Source: Bryobacterales bacterium (GTDB lineage: Bacteria > Acidobacteriota > Terriglobia > Bryobacterales > UBA6623). Taken from it: 64,000 nucleotides of DNA. Below are positions 1 through 59,073 of the stretch, piece after piece. Each line of letters starts with the position of its first letter. The first letter of the stretch is position 1. The position numbers and the translations under genes are program-made. The notes under the pieces were generated by a model. That model saw only the letters and a program-made list of their open reading frames with translations. It was not told where the DNA came from and did no database searches. The stretch is taken from positions 2,792,436-2,856,435 of the forward strand of contig OY729422.1 of the NCBI GenBank assembly GCA_963422305.1. The letters run 5' to 3'.

Positions 1-850
1 GCAGATCCGGCGCAGCCGCTTGCATCCGGAAAGCCAATTCATAGCCTGCTATACGGTCGGCGATTTGCCGGTCGCCGGTGAGCTCCAGATTTTCTTCGTT
101 CAGCTTGCGCAGTGTGTCCAAGCTCAAGCGTTGCGCTTGCCGGGTCACTCCTTTGGGGTTCGACAAGTAGAGAATCGGGTCGCCCGACTTGCGGAAAGGC
201 ACGCCGTTGTGACTTGACTGTAGAAAACCGCTGGAAAAATTCGAGGCGCCTCCGCTAGCTCCCCGGCCCGAGCTCAATACGACGAAACCGGGAAGGTTCT
301 GTGATTCGCTTCCCAAGCCGTAGGTCAACCACGAGCCGATCGTCGGACGGCCGACCAGCGGGCTGCCGCTCATCAGCAGCGACTGCCCGGGATGATGGTT
401 CACTTGATCGCTTTGCATCGAGCGCACCAGGCAGATATCGTCGGCGATCGTTTGTAGCCGCGGCAGATAGTCGCTAATAGTCATGCCGCTTTGGCCGCAC
501 TTCGTGAAGCGGCGCGGACTCGCCAGCACCTTCGCCGTCGGTTTGATGAACGCGAGCTGCATTTCTTTGGTCATCGAAGGCGGCAGCGGCCGTCCGTGCC
601 ACTTTTCAAGGCCGGGCTTCGGATCGAAAAGATCCATTTGACTCGGAGCTCCGGCCATGAAAAGGAAGATCAGATTCTTTGCCTTCGGCGCGAAGTGCGG
701 CGGACGGGGCGCGAGTGGATTGCCGTCGGACGCTGCCGACCGTCCTTCGCCGCCTATGAGGTGCGCCAACGCGGCTGAGCATGCGCCACCGGCGCAAGCG
801 TCCAGGAAATGCCTCCTCGTCCGAATGTTCCGGTATCGTTCGAAAGTCAT
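1..850 (-). CDS. DUF1501 family protein (sulfatase/alkaline-phosphatase superfamily), partial; C-terminus lies beyond the window edge
   Basis: Absent from the ORF track because it runs off the window. My reverse-strand translation from ATG (850-848) gives MTFERYRNIRTRRHFLDACAGG (twin-arginine-like leader) ...NLIFLFMAGAPSQMDLFDPKP...GSWLTYGLGSESQNLPGFVVL. This is collinear with the complete DUF1501 ORFs at 36009-37382 and 43092-44516. It starts 7 nt after the stop of the upstream DUF1553 gene. Confidence 0.85.
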   Translation of the reverse strand, partial: MTFERYRNIRTRRHFLDACAGGACSAALAHLIGGEGRSAASDGNPLAPRPPHFAPKAKNLIFLFMAGAPSQMDLFDPKPGLEKWHGRPLPPSMTKEMQLAFIKPTAKVLASPRRFTKCGQSGMTISDYLPRLQTIADDICLVRSMQSDQVNHHPGQSLLMSGSPLVGRPTIGSWLTYGLGSESQNLPGFVVLSSGRGASGGASNFSSGFLQSSHNGVPFRKSGDPILYLSNPKGVTRQAQRLSLDTLRKLNEENLELTGDRQIADRIAGYELAFRMQAAAPDL

Positions 851-856
851 TTTGGG

Positions 857-3385
857 TCACTCGCGGGTAAGGAATTCATCGAGGTTCAAAAGGATGCGGC
901 TGATACCGACCCAGGTGGCAGCTTCGCCGGTATCGATACCGGCGAGAGTCGCCGGAAACCATGCCTTGACTATCTCCGGGTCGGCCTCGAGCAACTCTCG
1001 CTGGTTGACGAAATAGCCCAACATCTCTTCCTGCTCGCTCACGCGGGGCGACCGCGCCAAGCAAAGTTTATACGCATAGTCGAGACGCTCCTCGAATGTG
1101 TCGCCGGCGGCTTCCGTCAAAATCCGCAGCGCCAGGCCCTGAGCGATTTCCCAGAACACCGGATCGTTCAGCAGATTCAGCGCTTGCAGCGGAGTATTCG
1201 AGCGCCCGCGCGTACAGGAGGCGACATTGCGTTCGCCAAGATCGAAGTTGGCTAGAAAAGGGTACGGAGCGGTTCGCTGGTAGTGGATGTAGAGACCGCG
1301 ACGGTAGCGGTCGCTGCCCGCGCTCTCGTTCCACTTCACCGAGCCGGCATAAGCCAGCTCGGCCACGCCGGACGGCTGCGGCGGACGGACGCTCTTGCCG
1401 CCGACACGGGGATCCAGCAGTCCCGAGACGGCAAGCGCCGTATCCCGCAGGCTCTCGGCCGGCAGGCGCAATCGAACTTGGCGGGCGAGCAAACGGTTGC
1501 CCGGGTCTTTCCCGGTTAAATCCGGACGTACATTCGACGACTGGCGGTATGTAGCCGAGGTAACAATCAGACGGTGGATGCGCTTCAGGCTCCAACCCGA
1601 CTCGATGAGCTCCGACGCCAGCCAATCGAGCAGATCGGGATGACTGGGCTCTTCTCCCTGAAAGCCGAAGTTGTTCGCCGTCGATACCAGCCCGACGCCG
1701 AAGTATTCCTGCCAGATGCGGTTGACCGCGACTCTTGCTGTCAGGGGATTCTCGGTCGAGACGATCCAGCGGGCAAGATCGAGCCGGGTCGGCCTCCGGC
1801 CCACGTGTTGGAGAGGCTGCAGTGCCGAAAGCACTCCGGGGTTAATCGACTCGCCGGGCTCGTCCCATTCGCCGCGCTCGTGAACGTAGGTCCGGCGAGG
1901 TTCCCTAGATATTTCAATCACGCGCGCCCGGCTCACATCGGGAAAAGAATCCACGACGGCGTTCAGTTCCTTTACCGCCTCTCGAAACCCTGTCGCGGCA
2001 TACTCTTCCTTGCTGGTCACACGGCCGTAGTTGCGCAGAAACCATTCCGTGACGACGTAGTCGTCGCGTTCGCTGCGCTGATCGGGAGGCGTCTTCAGGA
2101 TGCGTTGACCGTTGTCGAGATAGAGGCCGATGATGTCCCAACTCGTATCCCACTGGTGCTCCACGCCGGGATTGTCGGCGGCCCAGAGCATTTTGGCCTC
2201 CCATGGCCGCTGCAACTCGCGCACTTTGTATTTCTTGTAGATTTCCGTAATCTTGGCGTCGAGTTCGGGCTTGGCCTGAAGATAGGGTCCGATTTCGCCC
2301 GGCAGCGGCGCGTCGATGTTGACTTCATTCAGTTCGTTGATAAAGGCGAAAAGCCGGTAATAGTCTTTCTGGGGGATCGGATCGAACTTATGGTCGTGGC
2401 AGCGCGCGCACTCGACCGACAGGCCCAGCCAGACCGTTGCGATCGTATTGGTGCGGTCGACGACCTCCTCGAAGCGGAACTGCTCGATATCGACGCCGCC
2501 CTCCCGATTTTTCAAGGTATTGCGGTAGAAACCGGTAGCTACGCGCTGTTCGACTGACGTGCCGGGAAGAAGGTCTCCGGCAAGTTGCTCGATCGTGAAG
2601 CGGTCGAACGGCATATCGGCGTTGAGCGCATGGATAACCCAGTGTCGATAGCGCCACGCATGCGGGCGCGCCAAGTCCTTCTCGTAGCCGTCCGAGTCTG
2701 CATAGCGCACCTGATCGAGCCAAGGGGCGGCCCAACGTTCTCCGAAGTGTTCCGAGTGGAGGAGCCGGTCGACGAGCAACTCATAGCCGCCTGCCGTTTC
2801 GGCGTCATGAGCCTCGGGAGGGAGTCCCGTCAAATCCAGGGACGCGCGGCGCAGCAAAGTGCGCGCGGGGGCTTCGGGGGATGGTTGAATGCCTTCGCGT
2901 TCCAATCGCGCCAACACGAAAGCGTCGATCGGATTCCGCGGCCAATCCTTATTGCGCACCTGCGGCGCGGCCGGCCGGCGATTGGGACGGAAAGCCCAGT
3001 GGCTGCTTTGGGGCCGAGCCGTGATTTCCGCTGTGGACTCCCACTTCGCGCCCTGGTTGATCCATTGTCTGAACAATTCGACCTGCTCACGCGGCAGCGG
3101 CCGGCCGGGCGGCATCTGTTGCAAGTTGTCGAGGCCGGCGAGTCGTTTCATCAACAAGCTTTGGACGCCGCGGCCCGGCTCGATCGCCGGACCGGACTTG
3201 CCGCCGTTCATCGCATCTTCCCGACGGTCGAGCCTCAGACCGTTTTGCTGTAATGCGGGTCCGTGACACAGCGTGCAATTCCGCGTGAGAATCGGCTCGA
3301 TGTCTTTTGCGAATGACACTTCATCTCGGGCGGCTGCCGGCGCTGACGAAACGAGCAGACACAACCAGAGCCCCTGGAGCTTCAT
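857..3385 (-). CDS. PSCyt1 (CxxCH) / DUF1549 / DUF1553 multidomain protein, secreted
   Basis: 842-aa ORF with a signal peptide (MKLQGLWLCLLVSSAPAAA). N-terminal CTLCHG cytochrome-c-like motif, RRASLDLTGLPP (DUF1549), CARCHDHKFDPIPQKDYY signature and a DUF1553-like C-terminus. Paralogous to 44532-47684. Confidence 0.9.
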   Translation of the reverse strand: MKLQGLWLCLLVSSAPAAARDEVSFAKDIEPILTRNCTLCHGPALQQNGLRLDRREDAMNGGKSGPAIEPGRGVQSLLMKRLAGLDNLQQMPPGRPLPREQVELFRQWINQGAKWESTAEITARPQSSHWAFRPNRRPAAPQVRNKDWPRNPIDAFVLARLEREGIQPSPEAPARTLLRRASLDLTGLPPEAHDAETAGGYELLVDRLLHSEHFGERWAAPWLDQVRYADSDGYEKDLARPHAWRYRHWVIHALNADMPFDRFTIEQLAGDLLPGTSVEQRVATGFYRNTLKNREGGVDIEQFRFEEVVDRTNTIATVWLGLSVECARCHDHKFDPIPQKDYYRLFAFINELNEVNIDAPLPGEIGPYLQAKPELDAKITEIYKKYKVRELQRPWEAKMLWAADNPGVEHQWDTSWDIIGLYLDNGQRILKTPPDQRSERDDYVVTEWFLRNYGRVTSKEEYAATGFREAVKELNAVVDSFPDVSRARVIEISREPRRTYVHERGEWDEPGESINPGVLSALQPLQHVGRRPTRLDLARWIVSTENPLTARVAVNRIWQEYFGVGLVSTANNFGFQGEEPSHPDLLDWLASELIESGWSLKRIHRLIVTSATYRQSSNVRPDLTGKDPGNRLLARQVRLRLPAESLRDTALAVSGLLDPRVGGKSVRPPQPSGVAELAYAGSVKWNESAGSDRYRRGLYIHYQRTAPYPFLANFDLGERNVASCTRGRSNTPLQALNLLNDPVFWEIAQGLALRILTEAAGDTFEERLDYAYKLCLARSPRVSEQEEMLGYFVNQRELLEADPEIVKAWFPATLAGIDTGEAATWVGISRILLNLDEFLTRE

Positions 3386-4866
3386 ATGCGCCTCGTTGCT
3401 TCGATCTCGTTCATGCGGCGGCGCAGAGCCCGGTCAAGCCGCTCGACGGCCTTCCGCGCTTTCGGTCGAGGGTCGTCTATCAGATTGCGATGTTCTCCCG
3501 GATCGCTGCTCAAATGATAGAGCTCGTCCATACCCTCTCTGCTGTCCCGCACGAGCTTCCATTCCGGGGTGCGCCACATACGTTGGTCCGCCGCCTCGAC
3601 GTGTTTCTGGTTGTACTCGGCGTAGAACGCTGTTCGCCACTTAGTGCGTTTTTGCTCGAGCAACGGCAGAAAGTTCTTTCCGCGGATCAGTATCTCATCC
3701 GGCAATGCCGCGTCCGCCATGGCCAACAGCGTCGGAAACCAATCGATATTCAGCACGACCTCATCGACTCTCAGCCCCGCGCTCAGGCGTTTCGGCCAGC
3801 GAACGACCGCCGGCGTCCGCAAGGAGTGGTCATACATGTTGGCGCGCGGACCTCGATTGTCGGTCAGCAGCCAACGTCCGTTGCCCTTGTGCCAGAGTCC
3901 GTGATGGCTCAGATTATAGCCGTGATCGCTGCTGAAGACGACGACCGTGTTGTCCGCCATGCCCGTCTTATCGAGAGCATTCAGGATGCGGCCTACATTG
4001 CGGTCAACGCTCGCGACCGCCGCGAGGTATTCGCGCATCATGCGCTTGGCCCGCGCAATGTCCAGCTTGGGGTAGTCGGCCTGAGGCAGTATCGGGTCGA
4101 GGCCTCGGAACGGCTTCCAATCCGCATCGCTCAACGGCAGCCAGGTTCGGTCGCCGTCGGGCGTTCTGTTCGCGGTATTGGCGTGCGGCGCCCAATAATG
4201 AATGTTGACAAGAAAGGGACGTTTTCCATCTTGCGCCTGAATAAACCGAATTGCCTCGTTCGTCAGGATGTCGGGCGTGTATCCGCGAACGACGTTGATC
4301 TCTCCGGCGGATTCGACCTTGGGGTCTTTCGAAATCCCCGCTCCGTTACGAAAGCCATAAAACCGGTCGTAGCCGTTTCGGGTGGGCAGATACTTATCGA
4401 GAACCCCGAGATGCCACTTGCCTATGAACAACGTTTTATAGCCGTCGGCCTGCAATATCTTCGGCCACGTCGGAATCGTTGGGTCGAGGCCGTTATCGGG
4501 TTCGGCGTCCGGATTGAGATAATCGGTGATCCCGATATCGGTACCGTAGCGGCCCGTCATCAAGCCCGCCCGCGACGGGCTGCAAACCGGGGTTGTCGTG
4601 AAAGCATTGGTAAGCCCCGCGCCTTCCCTGTAGAGGCGGTCGATGTTCGGCGTGTGCGCTTGGCCGTTGCCCAAGGCGCCGATGCTCCAGGCGGCCTGAT
4701 CGTCGGCGTATAGAAAGACGATGTTCGGCCGCGAGACGGCCGCTCCTGCCGGAGCAACGCTCAGCAACGCAAGGCATAGACGGCGCTTCGCAGACAACTG
4801 TCCCCATTGTACGACAGAAGCGGTTAACTTGAAACCGAAACCAGAGATATTGAAATACGGTTTCAT
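3382..4866 (-). CDS. Sulfatase (formylglycine-dependent, arylsulfatase family)
   Basis: 494-aa ORF. NIVFLYADD plus the sulfatase signature PVCSPSRAGLMTGRY (C-x-P-x-R). The stop overlaps the start of the downstream gene by 4 nt (ATGA). Confidence 0.9.
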   Translation of the reverse strand: MKPYFNISGFGFKLTASVVQWGQLSAKRRLCLALLSVAPAGAAVSRPNIVFLYADDQAAWSIGALGNGQAHTPNIDRLYREGAGLTNAFTTTPVCSPSRAGLMTGRYGTDIGITDYLNPDAEPDNGLDPTIPTWPKILQADGYKTLFIGKWHLGVLDKYLPTRNGYDRFYGFRNGAGISKDPKVESAGEINVVRGYTPDILTNEAIRFIQAQDGKRPFLVNIHYWAPHANTANRTPDGDRTWLPLSDADWKPFRGLDPILPQADYPKLDIARAKRMMREYLAAVASVDRNVGRILNALDKTGMADNTVVVFSSDHGYNLSHHGLWHKGNGRWLLTDNRGPRANMYDHSLRTPAVVRWPKRLSAGLRVDEVVLNIDWFPTLLAMADAALPDEILIRGKNFLPLLEQKRTKWRTAFYAEYNQKHVEAADQRMWRTPEWKLVRDSREGMDELYHLSSDPGEHRNLIDDPRPKARKAVERLDRALRRRMNEIEATRRI

Positions 4867-6901: not shown

Positions 6902-9900
6902 CTAGAATTCGAACCTCAGGCTGAATTGTGTTTCGCGGCCCGGTCTGGTGGACGTGACGCGCCCGAAGCCTCCGCGGATGGTGTCGGAGCCTCCGCCGCG
7001 CGTATTCGTATCGACGCCGCCAAAATTGGTGTGATTCAGGGCGTTGAACAAATCAACCCTGAGCTGCACTCTCATGCCTTCTTCGTTGAGTTTGAGACTC
7101 TTGGAGAGGGACATGTTGACCGTCCATGCGCCGGGACCGTAAATCGAACGCCGCCCCATCGTACCCGGTCGAATCGTTCGATTGCCGCGCGCATTGCGCG
7201 GGACGTTCTGAAACGCATCCGGGTTCAGGTATTGGTATTGGCCGTTCGTCGATGTGCGGTTATCGCTGCGCACCGCCTCCGCGTGGCTGCCGCCGATGAA
7301 GTCGGGGCGCGCGCCCGGCCCGCTGGCGCCTTGATAAATGCGCAGCGGATTGCCGGTCGCAGCGGTCAACAGGCCGCCGATCTGCCAACCTTCGACGAGC
7401 AGGCGCCGCGCCGCGCCGCCGCGGCCCTTGAATGGCAGCTCATAGATCCAATCAGTCACGAAGCGGTGCCGGATATGGAACGGCGTCGGTGCATGATTGA
7501 GCTTCAGATTGGTCAGATTCTGGGGCTCTTCGCCTCCGCCGCAGCATGTATAGTCGCCTCGGAAATACGAGGTGTTGCTGCCGTAGGTGTAGTTGAAGTT
7601 CGCCTGCAGGTTGGCTGAGAGCCTTTTCTTCAACGACGTTTGCAGGCTGTGATAGTCGCTGTTGTCGGCGCTCTGGTAGTAGCGGAACTGGCGGGCGAAG
7701 TTGGCTACCGGGAGTTGTCCCGTCTGTCGGTCATTGCGGTTGAAGCCGGGGCTGTAGATGAGCTTCACGCCTCGGTTGCCGACATACGCGATGTCGAAAA
7801 CCAGAGTGTCCGTCAACTGCCGTTGAATGCCATAAGACCATTGCAGGCTGTAGGAGTTTTCCCAATTCGGGTCAACAGCCGAACCGGTGACGATATCGCT
7901 GGCGGCGACCAAGGGTAGGACCTGTTCGCGCGTCGCCCCGTAGTTGACCCCGAATTGCTGCAGTTGCGAACGGTCGAGACTCGCCTGCGTCGGGGTTGTC
8001 AGGTCGTTTCGGACCAACTCGACCGGGCCCGAGAACAGATTGAACGGGATGTAGAACACGCCGAAGCCGCCTCGTATCACGGTCTTGTCGTTAAGCGAGT
8101 AGGCGAAACCGAACCTCGGCGAGAACATGTTGAAATGTTCTTTCCAAACGTCATCTGAAGACAGGAAGGGGCCAAACGGGCCGTCGCGGTTGAAGAAGCG
8201 CTCGTCGCGCTCGACCGGAACGGTTCCGTAGTCCCAGCGCAGGCCGAGATTGACCGTCAGCCTCTTGGATATGCGGATGTCGTCTTGCACGAACAGGCCG
8301 AAGAAATTCCGGCGGATTTCAAACTCGCTCAAACCGAAATTGAAGAACGCCGACTCCGGGTTGTTGGCCAGTGCATCTTCCAGAGTGTTGTATGAAAACC
8401 GAGGAGTGTCGTTCAGGACGCGGCGGGCGAAGTGAACGCGGAAAAGACCGCCGAACTTCAGAGAGTGCCTACCGCTGGTCTTGGCGAAGTTTTGCTCGAA
8501 GGTAGTAGTGGAGCCGGTTTTGGAAAACTGCCGGGCCTGTCCGGCGTCGGGCAGGCCCGCGCCCAATACTTTGGCAACGTTTAACGTCAGCAGTTGATCG
8601 ATGCGGTCCATATCCGAGCGGTTATAGCCGAAACGCGACTCAGTCGTCATGGTGGGGCTGAGCACGCGGTTGAAGGTGGCGGCCACGTTCTCGTTCAGGC
8701 CGTCGTGTAAGCGGGGATTCCCCTTGGCCAGCCTGGGCGTGAGCTGCAAGGGGCGGCCTCGCGTGTAGCGAACTGTCAACAGGGAATTGGCGTCCACCTG
8801 GTAGTCGCCGCGGAGAACTAGGTGGTTGTCTTCGTTCTGCTTCGCTCCGGAGCCGCTGAAGAAAGCGCGCGCGTCGTCGGGGTTCACTGGATTTTCGGTC
8901 GGCAGATACCAAGCGTCCCAATAGGTCTTCGATTCCGGAATGGCCCGCGTGATTTCCTCGCGGAACTTCAGCGACGGCACGAATCCGGTCAGAGGTCTTT
9001 GCTCATTGAGACGGTAACCCTCGAATGCTCCGAACAGGAAGACCTTGTTCTTCACGAGCGGGCCGCCGAGCGAGCCTCCGTACTGGTGGTACACCCTGGA
9101 GGTCTTGCGCGCCAGGATATGGTTGTTCGCATTCAGACCGCCGGATTGATACTGCTCGAATAAGCTGCCGTGCAGGTCGTTCGTTCCGCCTTTGGTGATG
9201 ATGTTGAAATTGCCGGCGACGGTCTGTCCGATTTCGGCTGAGAAGATGTTCTTCGATATCTCGACTTCTTGCACGGCTTCCAAGCTGACGCCCTTGATGA
9301 AATTGAAATTCTGATAGAGCGAAATCGACGGGAATTCGGAATCGGGAGCGGCGTCCACGCCGTCCACGGAGAACGAGAAGCCGCGTGGCGGAAGGCCGTT
9401 GATCGATACCGTCGTTCCATTCCCGTCGGACAAGCCTGTGCCGTTCTGCAGGATTCCTGTGATATCACGGCGCAAAAGCGGGAGCTCGTGAACCTGGTCG
9501 CTGTTGAGGTTGATGTCTTGCTCGGCGCTGACCGTGTTGAGCAGCGGCGCTTCTGCGGAAACATTCACCGTCTCGGTCGTCACGCCGAGTTCGAGCGTGA
9601 AGGCGACATTCGCCTTTTGGCCCGAAGACAACTGCAAGCCCGTTTGTTCATAGCTTTTAAAGCCTTCTGAAGAAACCAATGCCGTATAACTGCCGACCGT
9701 AACAAACGGTATGGTCACCTCGCCGCGTTCATTGCTGACGGCCTCTTTTGTAAAGCCGGTATTGTCGTTCACTAGAGTAACCCGGGCGCCCGGGATCACC
9801 GCGCCGGACGGGTCTTCGACACGCCCGTAGAGCGTGGCGGTTGTGACTTGCGCGAAGCTCGGTGCAACCAACGCCGGCGCCGTCAGCGCGATGAACGCGG

Positions 9901-10166: not shown

Positions 10167-10955
10167 ATGAAGAGTTCGACGAAGGAAAAAGCGCCGATCA
10201 AGGAGCCGTATACCTCGCAAACCGTGCTTCGCGCGCTCAAGGCGCTCGATGCTCTTGGTCAAGCGCAGGAAGCCCAATCGTTGCAATCGCTTTGCGAGCA
10301 GCTTGGCGTGGCTAAGGCATCGACGTTTCGTCTGATGCATACCCTGGAGGAAGCCGGATATGTCGGGAAGGATGCCGCCGGCGGGTATTTTGCCATGGGT
10401 CGAGGATCGCTGCAGTCCGCCCGGTACCGTCGCCAACTACCCGAGGCGGCGAGCCCTGAAATGCTTCGTCTGAGACGGCGGTTCCGCGAAACGGTCAGCC
10501 TGGCAGCTCTGTTCGACAATCATGTAGAGGTAGTCGAAGTCTTTGAAAGCCCGGAGTTTATGCGCATGAGCAACACCGTTGGACGCATTCTGCCGCCACA
10601 CGCCAGCTCGCTTGGCAAGGCCATCGTCGCGTTTCAAACCGAGCAGCGGCGCGAAACGCTGGTGCGCAGCTACGGAATCTATCGCTACACTGAGCACACC
10701 GTCATCGATGAAAGCGACTTGCAGCAGGAATTCGAAGAGATTCGGCATCGGGGCCACGCAACCGATGCCGAAGAAAACACCAAGGGCGGCCGTTGCTATG
10801 GCGTGCCCCTGCTCGACAGATCGGGCACGGCCTTTGCGGCATTAAGTGTTTCGATGCCGACAAGCCGCCACAAAACCGAAAGCGTGCAACAACGCATCGT
10901 CGAAGCGCTCAAGGAGAGCGCGGAGAATGTCGTTCGGGAGTTTGACTTGACCTAG
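10167..10955 (+). CDS. IclR family transcriptional regulator
   Basis: The ORF spans 10104-10955 (TTG start); ATG at 10167 (MKSSTKEK) is more plausible. TVLRALKALDALG...SLCEQLGVAKASTFRLMHTLEEAGYV is the IclR wHTH. The C-terminal effector domain ends ...GVPLLDRSGTAFAALSVSMP. Confidence 0.85.
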   Translation: MKSSTKEKAPIKEPYTSQTVLRALKALDALGQAQEAQSLQSLCEQLGVAKASTFRLMHTLEEAGYVGKDAAGGYFAMGRGSLQSARYRRQLPEAASPEMLRLRRRFRETVSLAALFDNHVEVVEVFESPEFMRMSNTVGRILPPHASSLGKAIVAFQTEQRRETLVRSYGIYRYTEHTVIDESDLQQEFEEIRHRGHATDAEENTKGGRCYGVPLLDRSGTAFAALSVSMPTSRHKTESVQQRIVEALKESAENVVREFDLT

Positions 10956-53566: not shown

Positions 53567-53643
53567 TGGTACGCCCGGCAGGATTCGAACCTGCGGCCTC
53601 TTGCTCCGGAGGCAAGCGCTCTATCCAGCTGAGCTACGGGCGC
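53567..53643 (-). tRNA. tRNA-Arg (anticodon CCG), CCA encoded
   Basis: The reverse complement GCGCCCGTAGCTCAGCTGGATAGAGCGCTTGCCTCCGGAGCAAGAGGCCGCAGGTTCGAATCCTGCCGGGCGTACCA folds as a cloverleaf. It has a 7-bp acceptor stem, GCTC/GAGC D stem, CTTGC/GCAAG anticodon stem with loop CTCCGGA, and GCAGG/CCTGC T stem with TTCGAAT loop. Confidence 0.93.
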
Positions 53644-53758: not shown

Positions 53759-56700
53759 ATGAATGACGAGAACATGCGCAACAGCATACGCGACGCAATC
53801 AGGGCTGCGCCGGCGGCGGGCTCCGGCGGCGGCTTCGCGCAGTGGGCAAGCAATCTATTGGCAGTCCTGGGCTACCGCAGCGAGCGCGCGCCGGACGGGC
53901 AGACGGGCGATGTTAACGAATTCATCGCAGATTTCCCGGCACTGAAGCCGAGCGCTCAATCGGAGCGCAATTTGCGCAGCAGCGCCGCATCCATACGCAT
54001 CCTCTTTCAGTTCACCAATACCGAGATCGCCGAGACGGCTCCAAGCGCATTGCTCGATGCCGCCGCTTTCGACTCGGGCAACGCCGAGAGCTTCATCTTT
54101 GCCGCCGTCGAACTGAACGGTGAAACCTATTCGCGGAGCAAGTACGCCGAATTCACCCGCGAGGTCAACAAACGGCTGCCGATGCCCATCGTGATTCTGT
54201 TCCGCGCCGCCGCCGGCCGTCTCACCCTGGCTTTCGTGCATCGCCGGGTCAACAAACGCAACATCGAGCGGGATGTGTTGGGCAGCGTCTCGCTGATCCG
54301 TGAGATCGACCCTGTCGATCCGCACCGCGCCCATATCGACGCGCTGGCCGAGTTGACGCCGGCCAAGCGGCTGCAATGGATGGGCAGCCGCGGCAAGCCG
54401 CGCAACTTCGACGGCCTGCTCGACGCTTGGTTGGACGCGCTCGACGCTAGGGAACTGAACCGCAAGTTTTACCGGGAGTTGTTCGCTTGGTTCGAGCGCG
54501 CCGTCGCCAAGACGAAATTTCCTGCCGGCGTTCCTCCTGAAGAGCACGTTATCCGTCTCATAACCCGCTTGTTGTTCGTATGGTTCATCAAGCAAAAGCG
54601 GCTGATTGCCGAGGAACTGTTCGTCGAAAACGAGATTCGCCGGCTGCTCAAAGACTATGACCGCGACGCCGGCGATTCCTACTACCGCGCCGTGCTGCAG
54701 AACCTGTTTTTCGCCACGCTGAACACCGAAATCGATCAGCGGCGCTTCAGCAAAGAGAGCAACGCCGATCACCGCGACTTTTCCCGCTACCGCTATCGAG
54801 ACGAAATCAGCGGTCCCGACCGCCTGATTGCGCTGTTCGCCCGAACGCCCTTCATTAACGGCGGCCTGTTCGATTGTCTGGATAGCTATGAAGCAGGCGG
54901 CAAGGGTGGGCGGCGCATCGACTGTTTTACCGACAACCGGAATCATCGCAAGCTGCTGTCCATCCCCAACCGCCTGTTTTTTGACCCCGAAGCTGGCCTG
55001 TTCCCTTTGTTCAACCGCTATAAGTTCACGGTGGAGGAGAACACGCCGGTTGAACGGGAGGCAGCCCTCGACCCCGAGTTGCTCGGCCGGGTCTTCGAAA
55101 ACCTGCTGGCCGCATACAATCCGGAGACGCGCCGGACGGCGCGCAAGGCCACCGGCTCCTACTACACGCCGCGTCCGGTAGTGGATTACATGGTTGACGA
55201 GGCGCTGACGGCAGCGCTGACGCAACGATGCAAGCCGACGGACGGCGACGATGAATTCTGGCGCGAGCGCCTGCGCTATCTGCTGGATTACAACGACGCC
55301 GGGGAACTGTTCGACTCGGACGAAACGGAAGCCGTGGTCCGAGCGGTCGCCGGACTGCGGGTGCTGGATCCGGCCGTCGGCTCCGGCGCATTTCCAATGA
55401 GCGTGCTGCACAAGCTCACTCTGGCGCTGCGCCGTCTCGACCCTGATAACGAACTCTGGAAGGAATTGCAGAAAGATCAAGCTCGTCGCCGAGCGGGCGC
55501 GGCCTTCGACGCCGATGACCGGGCAGAGCGTGAAAGACAGCTGGCCGCAATCAGCGATAACTTCGAGCGCTATCGGCGCTCCGACTTCGGGCGCAAGCTG
55601 TACTTGATCCAGAACGGCATCTACGGCGTGGACATCCAGCCCATCGCCTGCCGGATTGCCCAACTGCGCTTCTTCATCTCCCTGACCATCGAGCAGGAAC
55701 CCGACCCCGCCGCCCCCAATTACGGCATCAAGCCGCTGCCCAACCTCGAAACCCGCTTCGTCGCGGCGAATGCGCTGCTCGGTCTGGACAAGCCCGCCCA
55801 ATCGACACTGGGGCAAACCGACGCCGTCAAGCAACTGGAGCGGCGGCTGAAAGAAAACCGTGAGCGGCATTTTCACGTCAACAACCGTCAGAAAAAACTG
55901 GAATGCCGCAATAAAGACAGAGAACTGCGGGATGAGTTGGCTGCGGAGTTGAGAGCGGGCGGCATGCCCGCCGGCGCCGCCGAAAAAGTCGCCCGCTGGA
56001 ACCCCTACGACCAGAACGCCGTTGCCGACTGGTTCGACGCCGAATACATGTTCGGCCTAGCCGACGGCTTCGATATCGTCATCGGCAACCCGCCCTACGT
56101 GCGCGGCGAGAAGATAGCGGGCAAGGCGAGATTGCGCGCCGCTTTCGGGGACTTCTATAAGGGGACGGCCGATCTCTACGCCTATTTCTTCAAGAAGGGC
56201 GTGGAGTTCCTGGCAGCCAATGGGCTGCTCTGCTTCATCACCTCGAACAAGTTCATGCGGGCGGCTTACGGGCAGCCGCTGCGGGCTTTTTTGAAACGGG
56301 AAGCGCCGCCGGTTTTTCTTCTCGACATGGGGCGAACGGGAGCTTTCGATGCGACAGTGCGCCCCGCGATCATGCTGGCGGGGAAGGGCGGCAGCCGTAA
56401 AGCACTGCGCGCCGCCACCGTGCGGGAAAAAGACGGCGTGACGGACGACTTGCGCGCCTTCATGGAAGAGAGCGGATTCCTCATGTCCTTCGCCGCGTTG
56501 TCGGATAAGGGTTGGTCTCTCGCGGAACCGGCGCTGCTGCGACTGCGCGGCAAGATCGAGAAGGCGGGGGCGCCGCTGCGGGAATATCTGAAAGAAGGAC
56601 TCTACCGCGGCATTATTACGGGATTGAACGAAGCGTTTGTGATTGACGCGCAGACGCGCAAACGGCTGATCGCTGAAGACCCGAACAGCGCGGAACTGAT

Positions 56701-57388
56701 CCGGCCGTGGCTGCGCGGCCGGGACGTTCGGCGCCGGCGCGCGGATTGGGCCGGCCTGTATGTGATCGCCATTGCCTCAAGCGCCAACAAATCGTGGCCG
56801 TGGTCGTCCGCGAGCCCGGCAGTCGATGCCGTTGCTATTTTCAAGAAGACTTATCCGGCCGTTCACGGTCATCTGTCCCGATTCGAAGACAAGCTCTGCG
56901 AGAGACAGGACAAAGGGAGATTCTTCTGGGAACTGCGCGCCTGCGCCTACTACGAGGCGTTCGATCAACCGAAGATCATCTATGCCGACATTGGAACGGA
57001 AATGCGGGCGCTGCTCGACCGCGACGGCCGGCTGACGGGCAATACATGCTATATCATCCCCGGCGATGACGGCTACCTTCTCGCTCTACTGAACGCGAAG
57101 CTGCTGGACTTCTACTTCCGCTTGGCCATGCCCTGCCTGGATGACCCGTTCAGCGGCGGGGACATGAGATTCTTTCGCGTGGACATGGAGCGCACGCCCA
57201 TCGCAGCGGCCGGCCCGGCAAAGAAAGATCGCTTAGCCGCCCTGTCAAACGCAATCCAGACGGCCAAGCAAGCGGACCCCGCCGCCGATACATCCGCCCC
57301 CGAACGCGAAATCGACCGCATCGTCTATGACCTCTACGGCCTCGATGCAAGCGAAACCGCGCTGATTGAAAAGACCGCCGAGCGTTGA
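53759..57388 (+). CDS. Eco57I-family N6-adenine DNA methyltransferase with type IIG / BREX PglX-like architecture (1209 aa)
   Basis: Motif I VLDPAVGSGAFP, motif IV IVIGNPPYV, helical region with LLFVWFIKQK, LQNLFFATLN and PFINGGLF. TaqI_C-like specificity region (YRGIITGLNEAFVID...CYIIPGDDGYLLALLNAKLLDFY) and the typical C-terminal tail IVYDLYGLDASETALIE. Confidence 0.85.
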   Translation: MNDENMRNSIRDAIRAAPAAGSGGGFAQWASNLLAVLGYRSERAPDGQTGDVNEFIADFPALKPSAQSERNLRSSAASIRILFQFTNTEIAETAPSALLDAAAFDSGNAESFIFAAVELNGETYSRSKYAEFTREVNKRLPMPIVILFRAAAGRLTLAFVHRRVNKRNIERDVLGSVSLIREIDPVDPHRAHIDALAELTPAKRLQWMGSRGKPRNFDGLLDAWLDALDARELNRKFYRELFAWFERAVAKTKFPAGVPPEEHVIRLITRLLFVWFIKQKRLIAEELFVENEIRRLLKDYDRDAGDSYYRAVLQNLFFATLNTEIDQRRFSKESNADHRDFSRYRYRDEISGPDRLIALFARTPFINGGLFDCLDSYEAGGKGGRRIDCFTDNRNHRKLLSIPNRLFFDPEAGLFPLFNRYKFTVEENTPVEREAALDPELLGRVFENLLAAYNPETRRTARKATGSYYTPRPVVDYMVDEALTAALTQRCKPTDGDDEFWRERLRYLLDYNDAGELFDSDETEAVVRAVAGLRVLDPAVGSGAFPMSVLHKLTLALRRLDPDNELWKELQKDQARRRAGAAFDADDRAERERQLAAISDNFERYRRSDFGRKLYLIQNGIYGVDIQPIACRIAQLRFFISLTIEQEPDPAAPNYGIKPLPNLETRFVAANALLGLDKPAQSTLGQTDAVKQLERRLKENRERHFHVNNRQKKLECRNKDRELRDELAAELRAGGMPAGAAEKVARWNPYDQNAVADWFDAEYMFGLADGFDIVIGNPPYVRGEKIAGKARLRAAFGDFYKGTADLYAYFFKKGVEFLAANGLLCFITSNKFMRAAYGQPLRAFLKREAPPVFLLDMGRTGAFDATVRPAIMLAGKGGSRKALRAATVREKDGVTDDLRAFMEESGFLMSFAALSDKGWSLAEPALLRLRGKIEKAGAPLREYLKEGLYRGIITGLNEAFVIDAQTRKRLIAEDPNSAELIRPWLRGRDVRRRRADWAGLYVIAIASSANKSWPWSSASPAVDAVAIFKKTYPAVHGHLSRFEDKLCERQDKGRFFWELRACAYYEAFDQPKIIYADIGTEMRALLDRDGRLTGNTCYIIPGDDGYLLALLNAKLLDFYFRLAMPCLDDPFSGGDMRFFRVDMERTPIAAAGPAKKDRLAALSNAIQTAKQADPAADTSAPEREIDRIVYDLYGLDASETALIEKTAER

Positions 57389-57497
57389 CCGGCGTGATGC
57401 GCGCCGGCGTCTGGCCGCTCTCTATATAGCGGTGGGGAGTGCAGGCGGAACTCCGAAGACGGAGCAGTCTGCGGTAACGTACAAGGGTGAATTCGGT

Positions 57498-57677
57498 ATG
57501 AGTAAAAAGAAAAACCCTCCGCCGCCAGAACCGCCGGTAAGTCCTCTGCCGGAGCCGTTGGAAAAGAGCATTGAGGCTGTCAGGTCCACTGTGCGCCCCC
57601 CGCGGACGAAGCCGCCGCCGCGGCCGAAGCCTCCGGCAGACCCGGCCAACGACGGCGCCGAAGAAGGCGGTTCTTGA
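57498..57677 (+). CDS. Hypothetical 59-aa proline/lysine-rich, probably disordered protein
   Basis: ATG preceded by AAGGGTGA. MSKKKNPPPPEPPVSPLPEPLEKSIEAVRSTVRPPRTKPPPRPKPPADPANDGAEEGGS. It ends 26 nt before the next gene. Coding status is uncertain. Confidence 0.35.
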   Translation: MSKKKNPPPPEPPVSPLPEPLEKSIEAVRSTVRPPRTKPPPRPKPPADPANDGAEEGGS

Positions 57678-57703
57678 TTGCGTTGCTATGATAAGCATCG
57701 TTC

Positions 57704-58243
57704 ATGACGAATGAGGGTTTTGATGATTTGCTGTTTGGCGTGCGCCGTTCGATACGCTACCATTCGAGGCGGCAAGCGTTTTTCGAAAGGCTTGATCGCT
57801 GGTCCGCGTTTGTGTTGCTGCTGTTGGGTTCTGGAGCGGTCGCGTCGGTCCTGCAAGACAATAAAACCTGGGCTCTCATCGCGGGGCTTGGCGTGACGTG
57901 CGTCTCCGGTCTGAACCTTGTCTTTGGGTTTGGAGTCAGGGCAAGCCGGCATGCCCAATTCGTCAAGGACTTCACGCGGTTTGAAACGCGGCTTCAGGAC
58001 GACGACTCCGACGAGACCGTAGCAGCCGTCGCCAAAGAACGTCTTGGCGTCGAGGCGGCGGAACCTCCGGTTATGCGGGTGCTTGACGTTATTTGCCACA
58101 ACGAGTTGCTCACGGCCATGGGTTACGAAGGCAATATTCTGCAACAGGAGCGAGTTCGGCTAACACGTCTCCAGCGCTTGACCGCCAATCTTTTCAATTG
58201 GGGCGAGCATCGATTGATAAAGGGCGGTCAAGAGTTGAGTTGA
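57704..58243 (+). CDS. Two-transmembrane-helix protein, SLATT/DUF4231-like topology (putative membrane effector)
   Basis: 179 aa. N-terminal amphipathic RRSIRYHSRRQAFFERLDRW, TM1 SAFVLLLLGSGAVASVL, TM2 WALIAGLGVTCVSGLNLVFGF, then ASRHAQFVKDFTRFETRL and a soluble C-terminal tail. The SLATT assignment is by pattern only. Confidence 0.5.
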   Translation: MTNEGFDDLLFGVRRSIRYHSRRQAFFERLDRWSAFVLLLLGSGAVASVLQDNKTWALIAGLGVTCVSGLNLVFGFGVRASRHAQFVKDFTRFETRLQDDDSDETVAAVAKERLGVEAAEPPVMRVLDVICHNELLTAMGYEGNILQQERVRLTRLQRLTANLFNWGEHRLIKGGQELS

Positions 58244-58281
58244 GCGTTTTTCGGCGTGCGCGGCGTCGTGGACCGATCGGC

Positions 58282-58437
58282 CGTCGTTCCAAAACCGTTC
58301 CAAGGCGGCGTAAAGCTCTTGTAAATGGTTTATGCGCTCTACGGCTCGATCGAGAAAGAAATTGCGCCGGCGGAAGAACGGACAAGGCGTCGCCGCCGCT
58401 TCAAGACCATTCCAAGGTGACGTAAAGCGCTTGTAAA
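58282..58437. repeat. Two 44-nt imperfect direct repeats (58282-58325 and 58394-58437, 36 of 44 identical) upstream of the ECF sigma gene
   Basis: CGTCGTTCCAAAACCGTTCCAAGGCGGCGTAAAGCTCTTGTAAA versus CGCCGCTTCAAGACCATTCCAAGGTGACGTAAAGCGCTTGTAAA, aligned by eye. Period 112 nt. Confidence 0.7.
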
Positions 58438-58503
58438 GAGAGTTTAACCTGGGTTTTACCGTTGTGGAATAACCGCTCCGGGAGGCCGCTGCGTCTTATC
58501 GGC

Positions 58504-59073
58504 ATGACTGTCGATCCTGAAATCATCCGCCAAGCTCAAAATGGGGACGAGGCTGCCTTCAGCGCCGTTTTCCGCGCCTACAAACAGCGTGTGTTCGGCA
58601 CGGTCTATCGCCTGCTCGGACGCCGTGACGCCGTCGAAGACGTGGGTCAGGATGTCTTTATTCGTCTGTACCGGTCGCTCGGACAACTGCGCGCGGTCGA
58701 GGTGTTCGAGACATGGCTGTACCGCCTGACGGTCAATACCGTTTATGATTATCTGCGCAAGGAGCGGCGGCGCTGCGACGTGCGGTTGGCCGACCTGAGC
58801 GAAGAGCAGATTCGCCTAGCCGATAGCGCCGCCTCCGGCAGGGACATGGCGGTTACGCGGCGCCGGACGGAAGCGCGCTGTCTGCTGCAGGCTCTGTTGG
58901 CCAACGTCTCGGAAGCGGACAAGCGGCTGTTGACGCTGAAGGAAGTCGAGGGTCTGACGCTGAAAGAGATGGAAGGCATTTACTGCTCGAACGAAAACGC
59001 CTTGAAAGTGAGGCTGTTTCGGGCGCGCAAGCGAGCGCGCCGGGCATACCAACAGATGCCGGCCGCGTATTAG
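58504..59073 (+). CDS. ECF-type RNA polymerase sigma-70 family factor
   Basis: Start at ATG 58504 (MTVDPEIIRQAQNGDEAAF). Region 2 is VEDVGQDVFIRLYRSL...FETWLYRLTVNTVYDYLRK. Region 4 is LTLKEVEGLTLKEMEGIYCSNENALKVRLFRARKRAR. Confidence 0.88.
   Translation: MTVDPEIIRQAQNGDEAAFSAVFRAYKQRVFGTVYRLLGRRDAVEDVGQDVFIRLYRSLGQLRAVEVFETWLYRLTVNTVYDYLRKERRRCDVRLADLSEEQIRLADSAASGRDMAVTRRRTEARCLLQALLANVSEADKRLLTLKEVEGLTLKEMEGIYCSNENALKVRLFRARKRARRAYQQMPAAY

Follow-up and report, generated by a model that had tools for sequence, protein, structure and literature searches.

How a membrane effector of bacterial conflict systems is switched on is a general question that one locus of a Bryobacterales bacterium raises in a specific form. 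SLATT-type proteins, which are predicted pore-forming toxins, count among the membrane effectors most often predicted in bacterial immunity, and their activation mechanism is a central question that is still open (bioRxiv 10.64898/2026.04.29.721553). The locus studied here lies in a stretch of 64,000 nucleotides (nt) of contig OY729422.1, which we call the window and whose positions provide the numbering. It consists of two genes on the (+) strand: a short open reading frame (ORF), referred to as the micro-ORF, and a gene for a protein with two predicted transmembrane segments (2-TM; protein P0001), which an earlier note on this DNA had likened to SLATT proteins. Could the small product take the place of the enzymes that usually accompany such effectors? 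We are confident that the two genes form a genuine conserved cassette, mobile and self-contained. We propose that it is a nucleotide-independent exclusion, abortive-infection or toxin–antitoxin (TA)-like conflict module in which a membrane effector is controlled by a peptide, a reading to which we give roughly an even chance.

According to the earlier note, the upstream frame encodes 59 amino acids (aa), more than 30% of them proline, has a Shine–Dalgarno sequence and ends 26 nt before the 2-TM gene. All of this was confirmed: the product, MSKKKNPPPPEPPVSPLPEPLEKSIEAVRSTVRPPRTKPPPRPKPPADPANDGAEEGGS, contains 18 prolines among its 59 residues (30.5%; isoelectric point 9.3), the ribosome-binding sequence reads AAGGGTG, and the spacing between the two frames in the window is exactly 26 nt. 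The suggestion of a tight gene pair is likewise borne out, because the pairing recurs and some copies are fused, and the micro-ORF proved to be conserved at homologous loci. We retrieved 80 genomic loci, or 82 when phage loci are included. At about 75 of these 82, the 2-TM gene is preceded on its own strand by a short ORF (median length 62 aa) whose stop codon falls near the predicted 2-TM start, mostly in the interval from 61 nt before to 29 nt after it; about one-third overlap that start, and often the two genes either overlap or are no more than about 30 nt apart.

The only conserved feature of the encoded peptide is a short motif with the family consensus [VI]-x-[DN]-T-[LVH]-x-P-P-(P)n. 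At 61 of the 82 loci the upstream ORF matches the strict pattern [DN]T..[PA]P, against about 1.4 expected from a six-frame background. In a logo drawn from 55 distinct loci, V or I occupies position -2 in 49, although that position lay outside the search pattern. The window copy, VRSTVRPP, has Ser where D or N is usual, and the closest relative (locus L006) reads VRNTVGPP. All synonymous codons are used for the motif Thr and Pro across loci, and the ratio of nonsynonymous to synonymous substitution rates (dN/dS) in related pairs is mostly 0.2–0.8 for the micro-ORF (below 1 in most) and 0.1–0.4 for the 2-TM gene. The conserved motif, the use of synonymous codons, the dN/dS values and the natural fusions all speak against a chance ORF, which was rejected; by these sequence criteria, the micro-ORF is a real conserved gene. 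The micro-protein family averages 13% Pro, 19% Lys plus Arg, 15% Asp plus Glu and 14.5% hydrophobic residues, with 0.2% Cys, and this Pro-rich, charged composition with few hydrophobic residues indicates that the micro-protein is intrinsically disordered. An outer-membrane spanin (Rz1-like) reading of the Pro-rich peptide was rejected, as it has no signal peptide and no lipobox Cys in a family so poor in that residue.

Five distinct proteins of 220–230 aa (P0246 and P0267–P0270), which come from different sources and are down to 65% identical, are natural in-frame fusions of the micro-protein to the 2-TM protein. Their peptide part carries KVIDTIPPP, followed by a linker of about 18 residues and then the LLFGVRRSIRYH helix, which places the motif about 25 residues N-terminal of LLFGVRRSIRYH. 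Taken as Rosetta-stone proteins, these fusions imply that the two gene products work together on the cytoplasmic side, at the N-terminus of the membrane protein.

The proline runs of the peptide also bear on a different reading, in which the micro-ORF is mainly a cis-acting translational leader: its polyproline stretch, dependent on elongation factor P (EF-P) and possibly an arrest peptide, would set the translation of the 2-TM gene, and the free peptide would be functionless. PPP and PPPP runs are indeed conserved, the micro-ORF stop lies within about 60 nt of the 2-TM start or overlaps it in most loci, and the peptide does not dock in a predicted fusion structure. However, anywhere between 66 and 254 nt separate the peptide motif from the coding motif of the 2-TM gene, and 2 to 27 residues follow the prolines, so a stalled ribosome would not stand at a set distance from the downstream start. 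In addition, the conserved positions other than proline (V/I at -2, D/N at 0, T at +1 and L/V/H at +2) exceed what EF-P dependence needs, and the in-frame fusions retain the motif within the mature protein. We therefore consider a purely cis-acting role very unlikely.

The second product, P0001, has a basic N-terminal region, with seven K/R among its first 32 residues, and two hydrophobic segments by hydropathy, separated by the five-residue loop QDNKT. Its AlphaFold2 (AF2) model, computed from a 44-sequence alignment, is all-helical (helices 4–50, 54–74, 76–99, 103–118 and 125–138), with a predicted local distance difference test (pLDDT) of 93.6 and a predicted template-modelling score (pTM) of 0.85. 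Conservation was assessed in an alignment of 44 homologues, in which 13 positions in total are invariant. In the N-terminal helix, F11, S16, R18, Y19 and R23 are invariant and L10, R14, R15, I17 and H20 are at least 90% conserved; after the second transmembrane segment, E94 is invariant, with A80 and H83 conserved to at least 90%; and in the C-terminal motif, E120, P121, P122, L127, C131, H132 and N133 are invariant. The corresponding family blocks are LLFGVRRSIRYHxRR in the N-terminal helix, A-x-x-H...F..LE after the hairpin and E-P-P-[VI]-L-x-V-L-D-x-I-C-H-N-E-L in the C-terminal part. The protein is predicted to have both termini in the cytoplasm, where the family-specific C-terminal region would also lie.

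Is this a SLATT protein? The earlier note had seen a basic N-terminal helix, two closely spaced hydrophobic helices and an A-x-x-H...F...LE helix behind them; hydropathy and AF2 support the first two, and the third is real and conserved in the alignment. Its comparison with the SLATT/DUF4231 layout held up in part: the basic N-helix, the tight hairpin, the helical tail and the top fold matches agree with it, but the profile cut-offs for SLATT_1–6 and DUF4231 and the profile–profile comparison by hhalign do not. Against P0001, Pfam SLATT_1 (PF18181) scored 12.9 bits, below its cut-off of 26.3 (E = 0.12), NCBIfam SLATT_1 (NF033634) scored 20.9 bits for a cut-off of 41, and SLATT_4 scored 13.9 for a cut-off of 55. 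Among the 44 members, Pfam SLATT_1 matches 7, NCBIfam SLATT_1 38 and NCBIfam SLATT_4 34, with a best E-value of 3.8e-6, and the PADLOC model for the '2TM effector' of cyclic-oligonucleotide-based antiphage signalling systems (CBASS) matches P0001 at E = 0.01. The Pfam and NCBIfam SLATT_1 alignments to P0001 end at residue 104–109, which marks the C-terminal region with EPP...CHN as family-specific.

When the AF2 model was compared with BFVD using Foldseek, the top matches were giant-virus proteins annotated as SLATT, at probability 1.0 and TM-scores of 0.5–0.68 (best match: E = 4e-3, probability 1.0, TM-score 0.64, root-mean-square deviation 3.4 Å over 156 columns). At least 9 of the top 25 matches carry that annotation, with E-values from 4e-3 to 0.2 that are consistent with a SLATT-like fold without being overwhelming. 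Membership of SLATT_1/DUF4231 was rejected on the curated cut-offs and the negative hhalign result. The 2-TM protein is SLATT-like in its predicted fold and is not a member of any curated SLATT family; it may be a very distant SLATT relative.

A Foldseek search of the PDB returned no solved SLATT structure, only non-specific helical hairpins (ESCRT-III, PspA, Vipp1 and colicins) at E of about 1. The ESCRT-III, PspA and Vipp1 hairpins, together with weak Rv2743c/PspM matches in 4–6 of the 44 members (best E about 3e-4), would suit a pair that is not a conflict system at all but an envelope-stress or membrane-maintenance protein, built like PspM/Rv2743c or like an ESCRT-III/PspA hairpin, with a small accessory protein. 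These matches are weaker and rarer than those to SLATT and none is significant, the family has a patchy, mobile-element-borne distribution rather than a core-genome one, and no psp genes lie near the pair. We regard such a housekeeping role as highly improbable.

The earlier note had also pointed out that no nucleotide-signal synthase is present here, and this is true of both the window island and the neighbourhoods of relatives. Pfam and PADLOC searches found no SMODS/cyclase, TIR or SLOG genes in the window island, and when the Pfam families of the 150 genes immediately beside the pair at the 80 loci were ranked by frequency, the top 25 did not include SMODS, TIR, SLOG or reverse transcriptase (RT). 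A genuine SLATT_1/DUF4231 protein from a Holophagales genome, examined as a control, illustrates the classical partner that the window family lacks: the gene for a 136-aa TIR-like protein containing YDIFLSHAW ends 3 nt upstream of its own (locus L093, 1063–1473 and 1477–1977). Clustering of up to four neighbours per side by BLAST showed that the 2-TM gene alone recurs, and by Pfam the 150 immediate neighbours are heterogeneous with no recurrent partner (among them Eco57I three times, Type ISP, N6_Mtase, AAA_15/AAA_21, KAP NTPase, HTH_3 four times, transposases, DUF2730, a holin and housekeeping enzymes). The micro-ORF is the one neighbour that does recur. PADLOC identified scattered defence genes among the neighbours (type I methyltransferase, MADS, PtuA, AbiL, AriA and GajA), and the copy at locus L002 adjoins a SmaI-type restriction–modification (R–M) system.

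The 2-TM family is large. A word-indexed search collected 357 homologues and an exhaustive one 1,599 clusters at 50% identity (E <= 1e-3), 663 of them at E <= 1e-10. Nearly all are 165–195 aa long; none has a precomputed Pfam domain, and those that are named are called 'hypothetical protein'. P0001 is a full-length member of phrog_11791 (E = 1.3e-46; residues 7–170 of 179 aligned to profile positions 11–172 of 173), a family that PHROGs and GenBank carry as 'unknown function' or 'conserved hypothetical'. By tblastn, the family occurs in the phages BcepMu (gp19) and phiE255 (gp49), in related Burkholderia phages, in Pseudomonas phage TC7 (TC7_041) and, on Klebsiella plasmids, in a Mu-like prophage. 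When the query was P0061, a Pseudomonas homologue of 174 aa, identity was 65.5% to BcepMu gp19 and 37.1% to the TC7 protein. The 80 genomic loci come from Acidobacteriota, Pseudomonas, Azotobacter, Stutzerimonas, Burkholderia, Paraburkholderia, Pandoraea, Rhodocyclus, Methylococcales, Arenicellales, Binatia, Nitrospirales, Desulfobacterota, Magnetococcales and Verrucomicrobiota, and loci with the cassette span at least eight phyla. The family is patchy and accessory: it is present in 16 of 401 Acidobacteriota genomes and 9 of 228 genera, and in none of the 3 genomes of the window's own order. No copy was found at the DNA level in complete genomes of E. coli. The titles and abstracts found on BcepMu gp19, or on SLATT together with prophages or small proteins, include no study of the 2-TM family. 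The family is unnamed and the cassette probably undescribed.

Among the phage records, that of phiE255 has the micro-ORF annotated (gp48), and phrog_27674 includes the BcepMu copy. The micro-ORF is unannotated in the records of BcepMu itself (NC_005882.1, about 10494–10682; locus L086, 4832–5020), of TC7 (locus L087, 3796–3954) and of the Klebsiella plasmid OW969859.1 (locus L102, 4778–4978). In TC7, the annotated start of the TC7_041 coding sequence (L087, 3872) overlaps the micro-ORF and was probably called too far upstream.

In the temperate phages BcepMu, phiE255 and TC7, the pair is found downstream of the repressor gene. BcepMu and phiE255 share the order cI/Cro-type regulator (gp17/gp46), membrane protein (gp18/gp47, in the PHROG category 'moron'), micro-ORF, 2-TM gene, small gene, holin, endolysin and spanins. 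A Mu-like phage present in many metagenomes has two helix-turn-helix (HTH) genes, the micro-ORF and the 2-TM gene, followed by lysis and late genes; a Pseudomonas prophage (locus L003) is similar, and on the Klebsiella plasmids the cassette lies inside the Mu-like prophage. In the lambdoid phage TC7, an S24-type repressor gene is followed after 31 nt by a 52-aa Pro-rich ORF and the 2-TM gene, with a convergent gene beyond; this pair is far from any lysis genes and matches the position of rexA and rexB in the order cI-rexA-rexB. A site downstream of the repressor and co-directional with it is the classical place for exclusion and abortive-infection genes expressed by lysogens, of which lambda rexAB is an example. 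This setting in prophage immunity regions and the conserved motif of the peptide, neither of which the earlier note mentions, are the features that tell most about the cassette.

The neighbourhood in the Mu-like phages would also suit a lysis accessory of temperate phages, with the 2-TM protein an antiholin, holin-like protein or regulator of lysis timing, the peptide its modulator and the island copies remnants. The pair lies upstream of holin, endolysin or spanin genes in BcepMu, phiE255, the Pseudomonas and metagenomic Mu-like prophages and the Klebsiella plasmid prophage, directly adjacent to them in most cases and with one small gene (gp20/gp50) between in BcepMu and phiE255, and two transmembrane segments with both termini inside resemble class II holins. 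Set against this, the Mu-like phages have a separate holin (BcepMu gp21; DUF7940 or Holin_2-3 genes elsewhere), TC7 carries the pair in its immunity region, no lysis cassette or phage structural gene adjoins the pair at most of the 80 genomic loci, the window included, and 175 aa with a conserved cytoplasmic domain would be atypical for a holin. We judge a lysis role to be quite unlikely.

We favour a model in which the cassette is a conflict module of mobile elements, acting in superinfection exclusion or abortive infection and perhaps serving for addiction as well. As its effector, the 2-TM protein would oligomerize like other SLATT-type proteins and damage or depolarize the inner membrane. 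Where classical SLATT systems have a nucleotide-signal or RT partner, this module would have the small protein, whose motif would attach it to the cytoplasmic side of the effector. There it would set the effector's state, either as an inhibitor or gate (an antitoxin) or as an activating sensor; the sequences are compatible with either direction. A more specific and more doubtful version makes the disordered protein of about 60 aa both sensor and gate of a suicide pore that would be encoded in defence islands and in the immunity regions of prophages. The peptide's motif, [VI]-x-[DN]-T-x-x-P-P, would hold the pore closed, and release would follow when a phage factor binds, cleaves or outcompetes the peptide, or when its rapid turnover outpaces synthesis. 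That the PRP-rich tail (RPPRTKPPPRPKPP in the window) acts on the ribosome like proline-rich antimicrobial peptides, linking the state of translation to the pore, is a scarcely probable extension.

Several results weigh against the conflict-module model. On the effector side, none of the 44 members is reported above any curated SLATT cut-off, and the PADLOC system models gave nothing beyond the weak effector match. The hhalign comparison used genuine SLATT_1, SLATT_4 and DUF4231 proteins from Acidobacteriota genomes and their homologues, and gave the 2-TM family a probability of 3.9% against 5 such proteins and 5.1% against 17; it aligned only the second transmembrane segment and the following helix, and as the comparison alignments are shallow and from a single clade this is a weak negative. 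On the side of the partner, the AF2 model of a natural fusion is confident for the 2-TM part, but residues 1–40 have a pLDDT of 44–58 and are unstructured and undocked in the monomer. About 8 of the 82 loci have no recognizable micro-ORF, which is awkward for an essential antitoxin. As to context, many neighbours are ordinary housekeeping genes, and in Mu-like phages the pair is always found by the lysis cassette, which leaves room for a lysis-related role.

The loci without a micro-ORF are also relevant to an explanation that overlaps with ours, as many TA modules are abortive-infection systems too. Here, the cassette would be a TA or addiction module that stabilizes prophages, plasmids and islands rather than defending against phages: the 2-TM protein would be constitutively toxic, the disordered peptide a labile antitoxin, and loss of the peptide through loss of the mobile element or transcription shut-off would kill the cell. 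As in type II TA operons, a small gene comes first and the larger one behind it overlaps with it or is coupled to it in translation; disordered proteins are typically protease-sensitive; and prophages, plasmids and islands are what carries the cassette. At locus L007, moreover, the absence of the micro-ORF coincides with a truncated 2-TM copy (P0009, 140 aa). Yet intact 2-TM genes also occur without a micro-ORF, for example at loci L008, L056 and L063, natural fusions are hard to square with differential turnover unless the tail is clipped, and the peptide has no DNA-binding fold for autoregulation. Pure addiction thus appears unlikely to us.

Some loci depart from the standard arrangement. 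At locus L011, a diverged 2-TM paralogue (7472–7990) lies directly upstream of the canonical copy (8001–8519), in the place of the micro-ORF, which is absent there; its motifs are degenerate (LLFQVRTSSCYHARR) and it has neither EPP nor CHN. Two further Acidobacteriota genomes (G170 and G200) each have two adjacent 2-TM matches in the same way, and this paralogue pairing may be a heteromeric variant. Together with the loci that have no peptide, it shows that the cassette arrangement is not absolutely fixed. In a Methylococcaceae locus (L052, about 900–1230, frame 1), VMDTIKPPPRP lies inside a longer upstream ORF that runs into a Gly/Ala-rich hydrophobic segment resembling a transmembrane helix, and this ORF may be a membrane-anchored version of the peptide. 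Upstream of position 8001 at locus L058, the motif VDTIEPPPPPPP is present with an in-frame stop before it, and the ORF is intact in the related locus L057; the L058 copy is either pseudogenized or affected by an assembly error.

In the window, the cassette sits within an island flanked by tRNA-Arg, between a type IIG R–M enzyme and an Mrr/methyltransferase pair (Table 1). Pfam and PADLOC searches identified an extracytoplasmic function (ECF) sigma factor, an Mrr-type nuclease and an N6/N4 methyltransferase on its 3′ side. No sigma-70 consensus promoter was found in 57200–58600, and Rfam gave no match for a non-coding RNA (ncRNA) upstream of the cassette. A DRT10-like reading with an upstream ncRNA was rejected, given the lack of an Rfam match and of a nearby RT. 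A four-gene unit with the type IIG enzyme and the ECF sigma factor was also rejected as a general arrangement. The ECF sigma factor gene has no recurrent counterpart next to the homologous loci and so does not belong to the module; Eco57I-type enzymes stand beside the pair in close relatives of the window and in one Binatia group only. In the closest relative (locus L001) such an enzyme also lies upstream (662–4288), with a DUF5343 gene and about 900 nt intervening. This adjacency to type IIG R–M enzymes is recurrent, not general, and may reflect co-inheritance within defence islands. In two Bryobacterales relatives, a coiled-coil protein with a C-terminal transmembrane helix (...ADEQLATK...) adjoins the cassette, downstream in one (L001, 6620–7069) and upstream in the other (L008, in an ORF ending at -39); it is absent from the window.

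Table 1. Features of the cassette and its surroundings, in window positions.
Feature	Position	Strand	Description
tRNA-Arg(CCG)	53567-53643	-	Island starts here
Eco57I-type type IIG enzyme	53759-57388		About 1209 aa; directly upstream of the cassette
Shine–Dalgarno-like AAGGGTG	57483..57489	+	8 nt before the micro-ORF ATG; read from the sequence
Micro-ORF	57498..57677	+	ATG start, 59 aa; from the ORF list and raw sequence
Micro-protein family motif V28-R-S-T-V-R-P-P35	57579..57602	+	Followed by RTKPPPRPKPP
2-TM gene (P0001)	57704..58243	+	179 aa; phrog_11791/BcepMu gp19 family; SLATT-like fold predicted
Basic N-terminal helix motif LLFGVRRSIRYHSRR	57728..57772	+	Residues 9-23; predicted cytoplasmic
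Transmembrane hairpin	57800..57937	+	TM1 ~33-52, 5-residue loop, TM2 ~56-78; hydropathy; AF2 helices 4-50, 54-74
Post-TM helix A80-x-x-H83...F...L-E94	57941..57985	+	From the 44-homologue alignment
C-terminal motif E120-P-P-V-M-R-V-L-D-V-I-C-H-N-E-L135	58061..58108	+	Family-specific
ECF sigma factor gene	58462-59073	+	220 nt downstream of the cassette

If our model is correct, the cassette would be a minimal and tractable model of gating in SLATT-like membrane effectors, in which the one conserved partner is an encoded, disordered peptide that bears a motif. It would also give a function to a large unannotated family, of about 1600 clusters at 50% identity, that is represented in phages as well known as BcepMu and phiE255. 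And a micro-gene that annotation systematically misses would be added, since the records of BcepMu, TC7 and the Klebsiella plasmid all lack it.

One of the closest known systems is phrog_11791 itself (BcepMu gp19 and phiE255 gp49, with gp48 in phrog_27674): P0001 is a clear member, and the order of micro-ORF and 2-TM gene is identical. The position right after a repressor, the co-directional arrangement and the presence of two genes with a membrane effector are shared with lambda RexAB, and the position also with immunity-region genes of the sieB type. RexB is an ion channel that is triggered by RexA and causes abortive infection. RexB, however, spans the membrane with four helices and RexA, of about 280 aa, is folded, whereas the partner in the cassette is a disordered peptide; the two systems have no sequence or fold relationship (PADLOC and Pfam gave no RexAB match), and the cassette is also found outside phages. 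With the membrane-depolarizing, type II-like TA systems whose toxins are neutralized by PanA/Panacea antitoxins (PMC8832971), the cassette shares a small upstream gene, a potentially membrane-active downstream protein and carriage by mobile elements. It differs in that its peptide has no folded antitoxin or DNA-binding domain and in that natural fusions exist; of the traits of a type II TA system, it shows the operon geometry (a small upstream gene, with an overlap or short gap). The PANGU systems with nucleoid-associated protein (NAP) sensors were set aside as unrelated, because they use folded nucleoid proteins.

SLATT proteins share with the 2-TM family a size of about 170 aa, a basic N-terminal helix, a tight two-transmembrane hairpin and cytoplasmic helices, and both are found in conflict or mobile-element contexts. 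Unlike SLATT proteins, the 2-TM family has an extra C-terminal region with invariant EPP...CHN and its own N-terminal RRSxRYH motif. The partners differ as well: a cyclase, TIR, SLOG or RT protein for SLATT, and a disordered peptide of about 60 aa with a short linear motif for the 2-TM family. What we propose as new is therefore a SLATT-like effector that would be served by a peptide partner instead of a nucleotide-signal enzyme.

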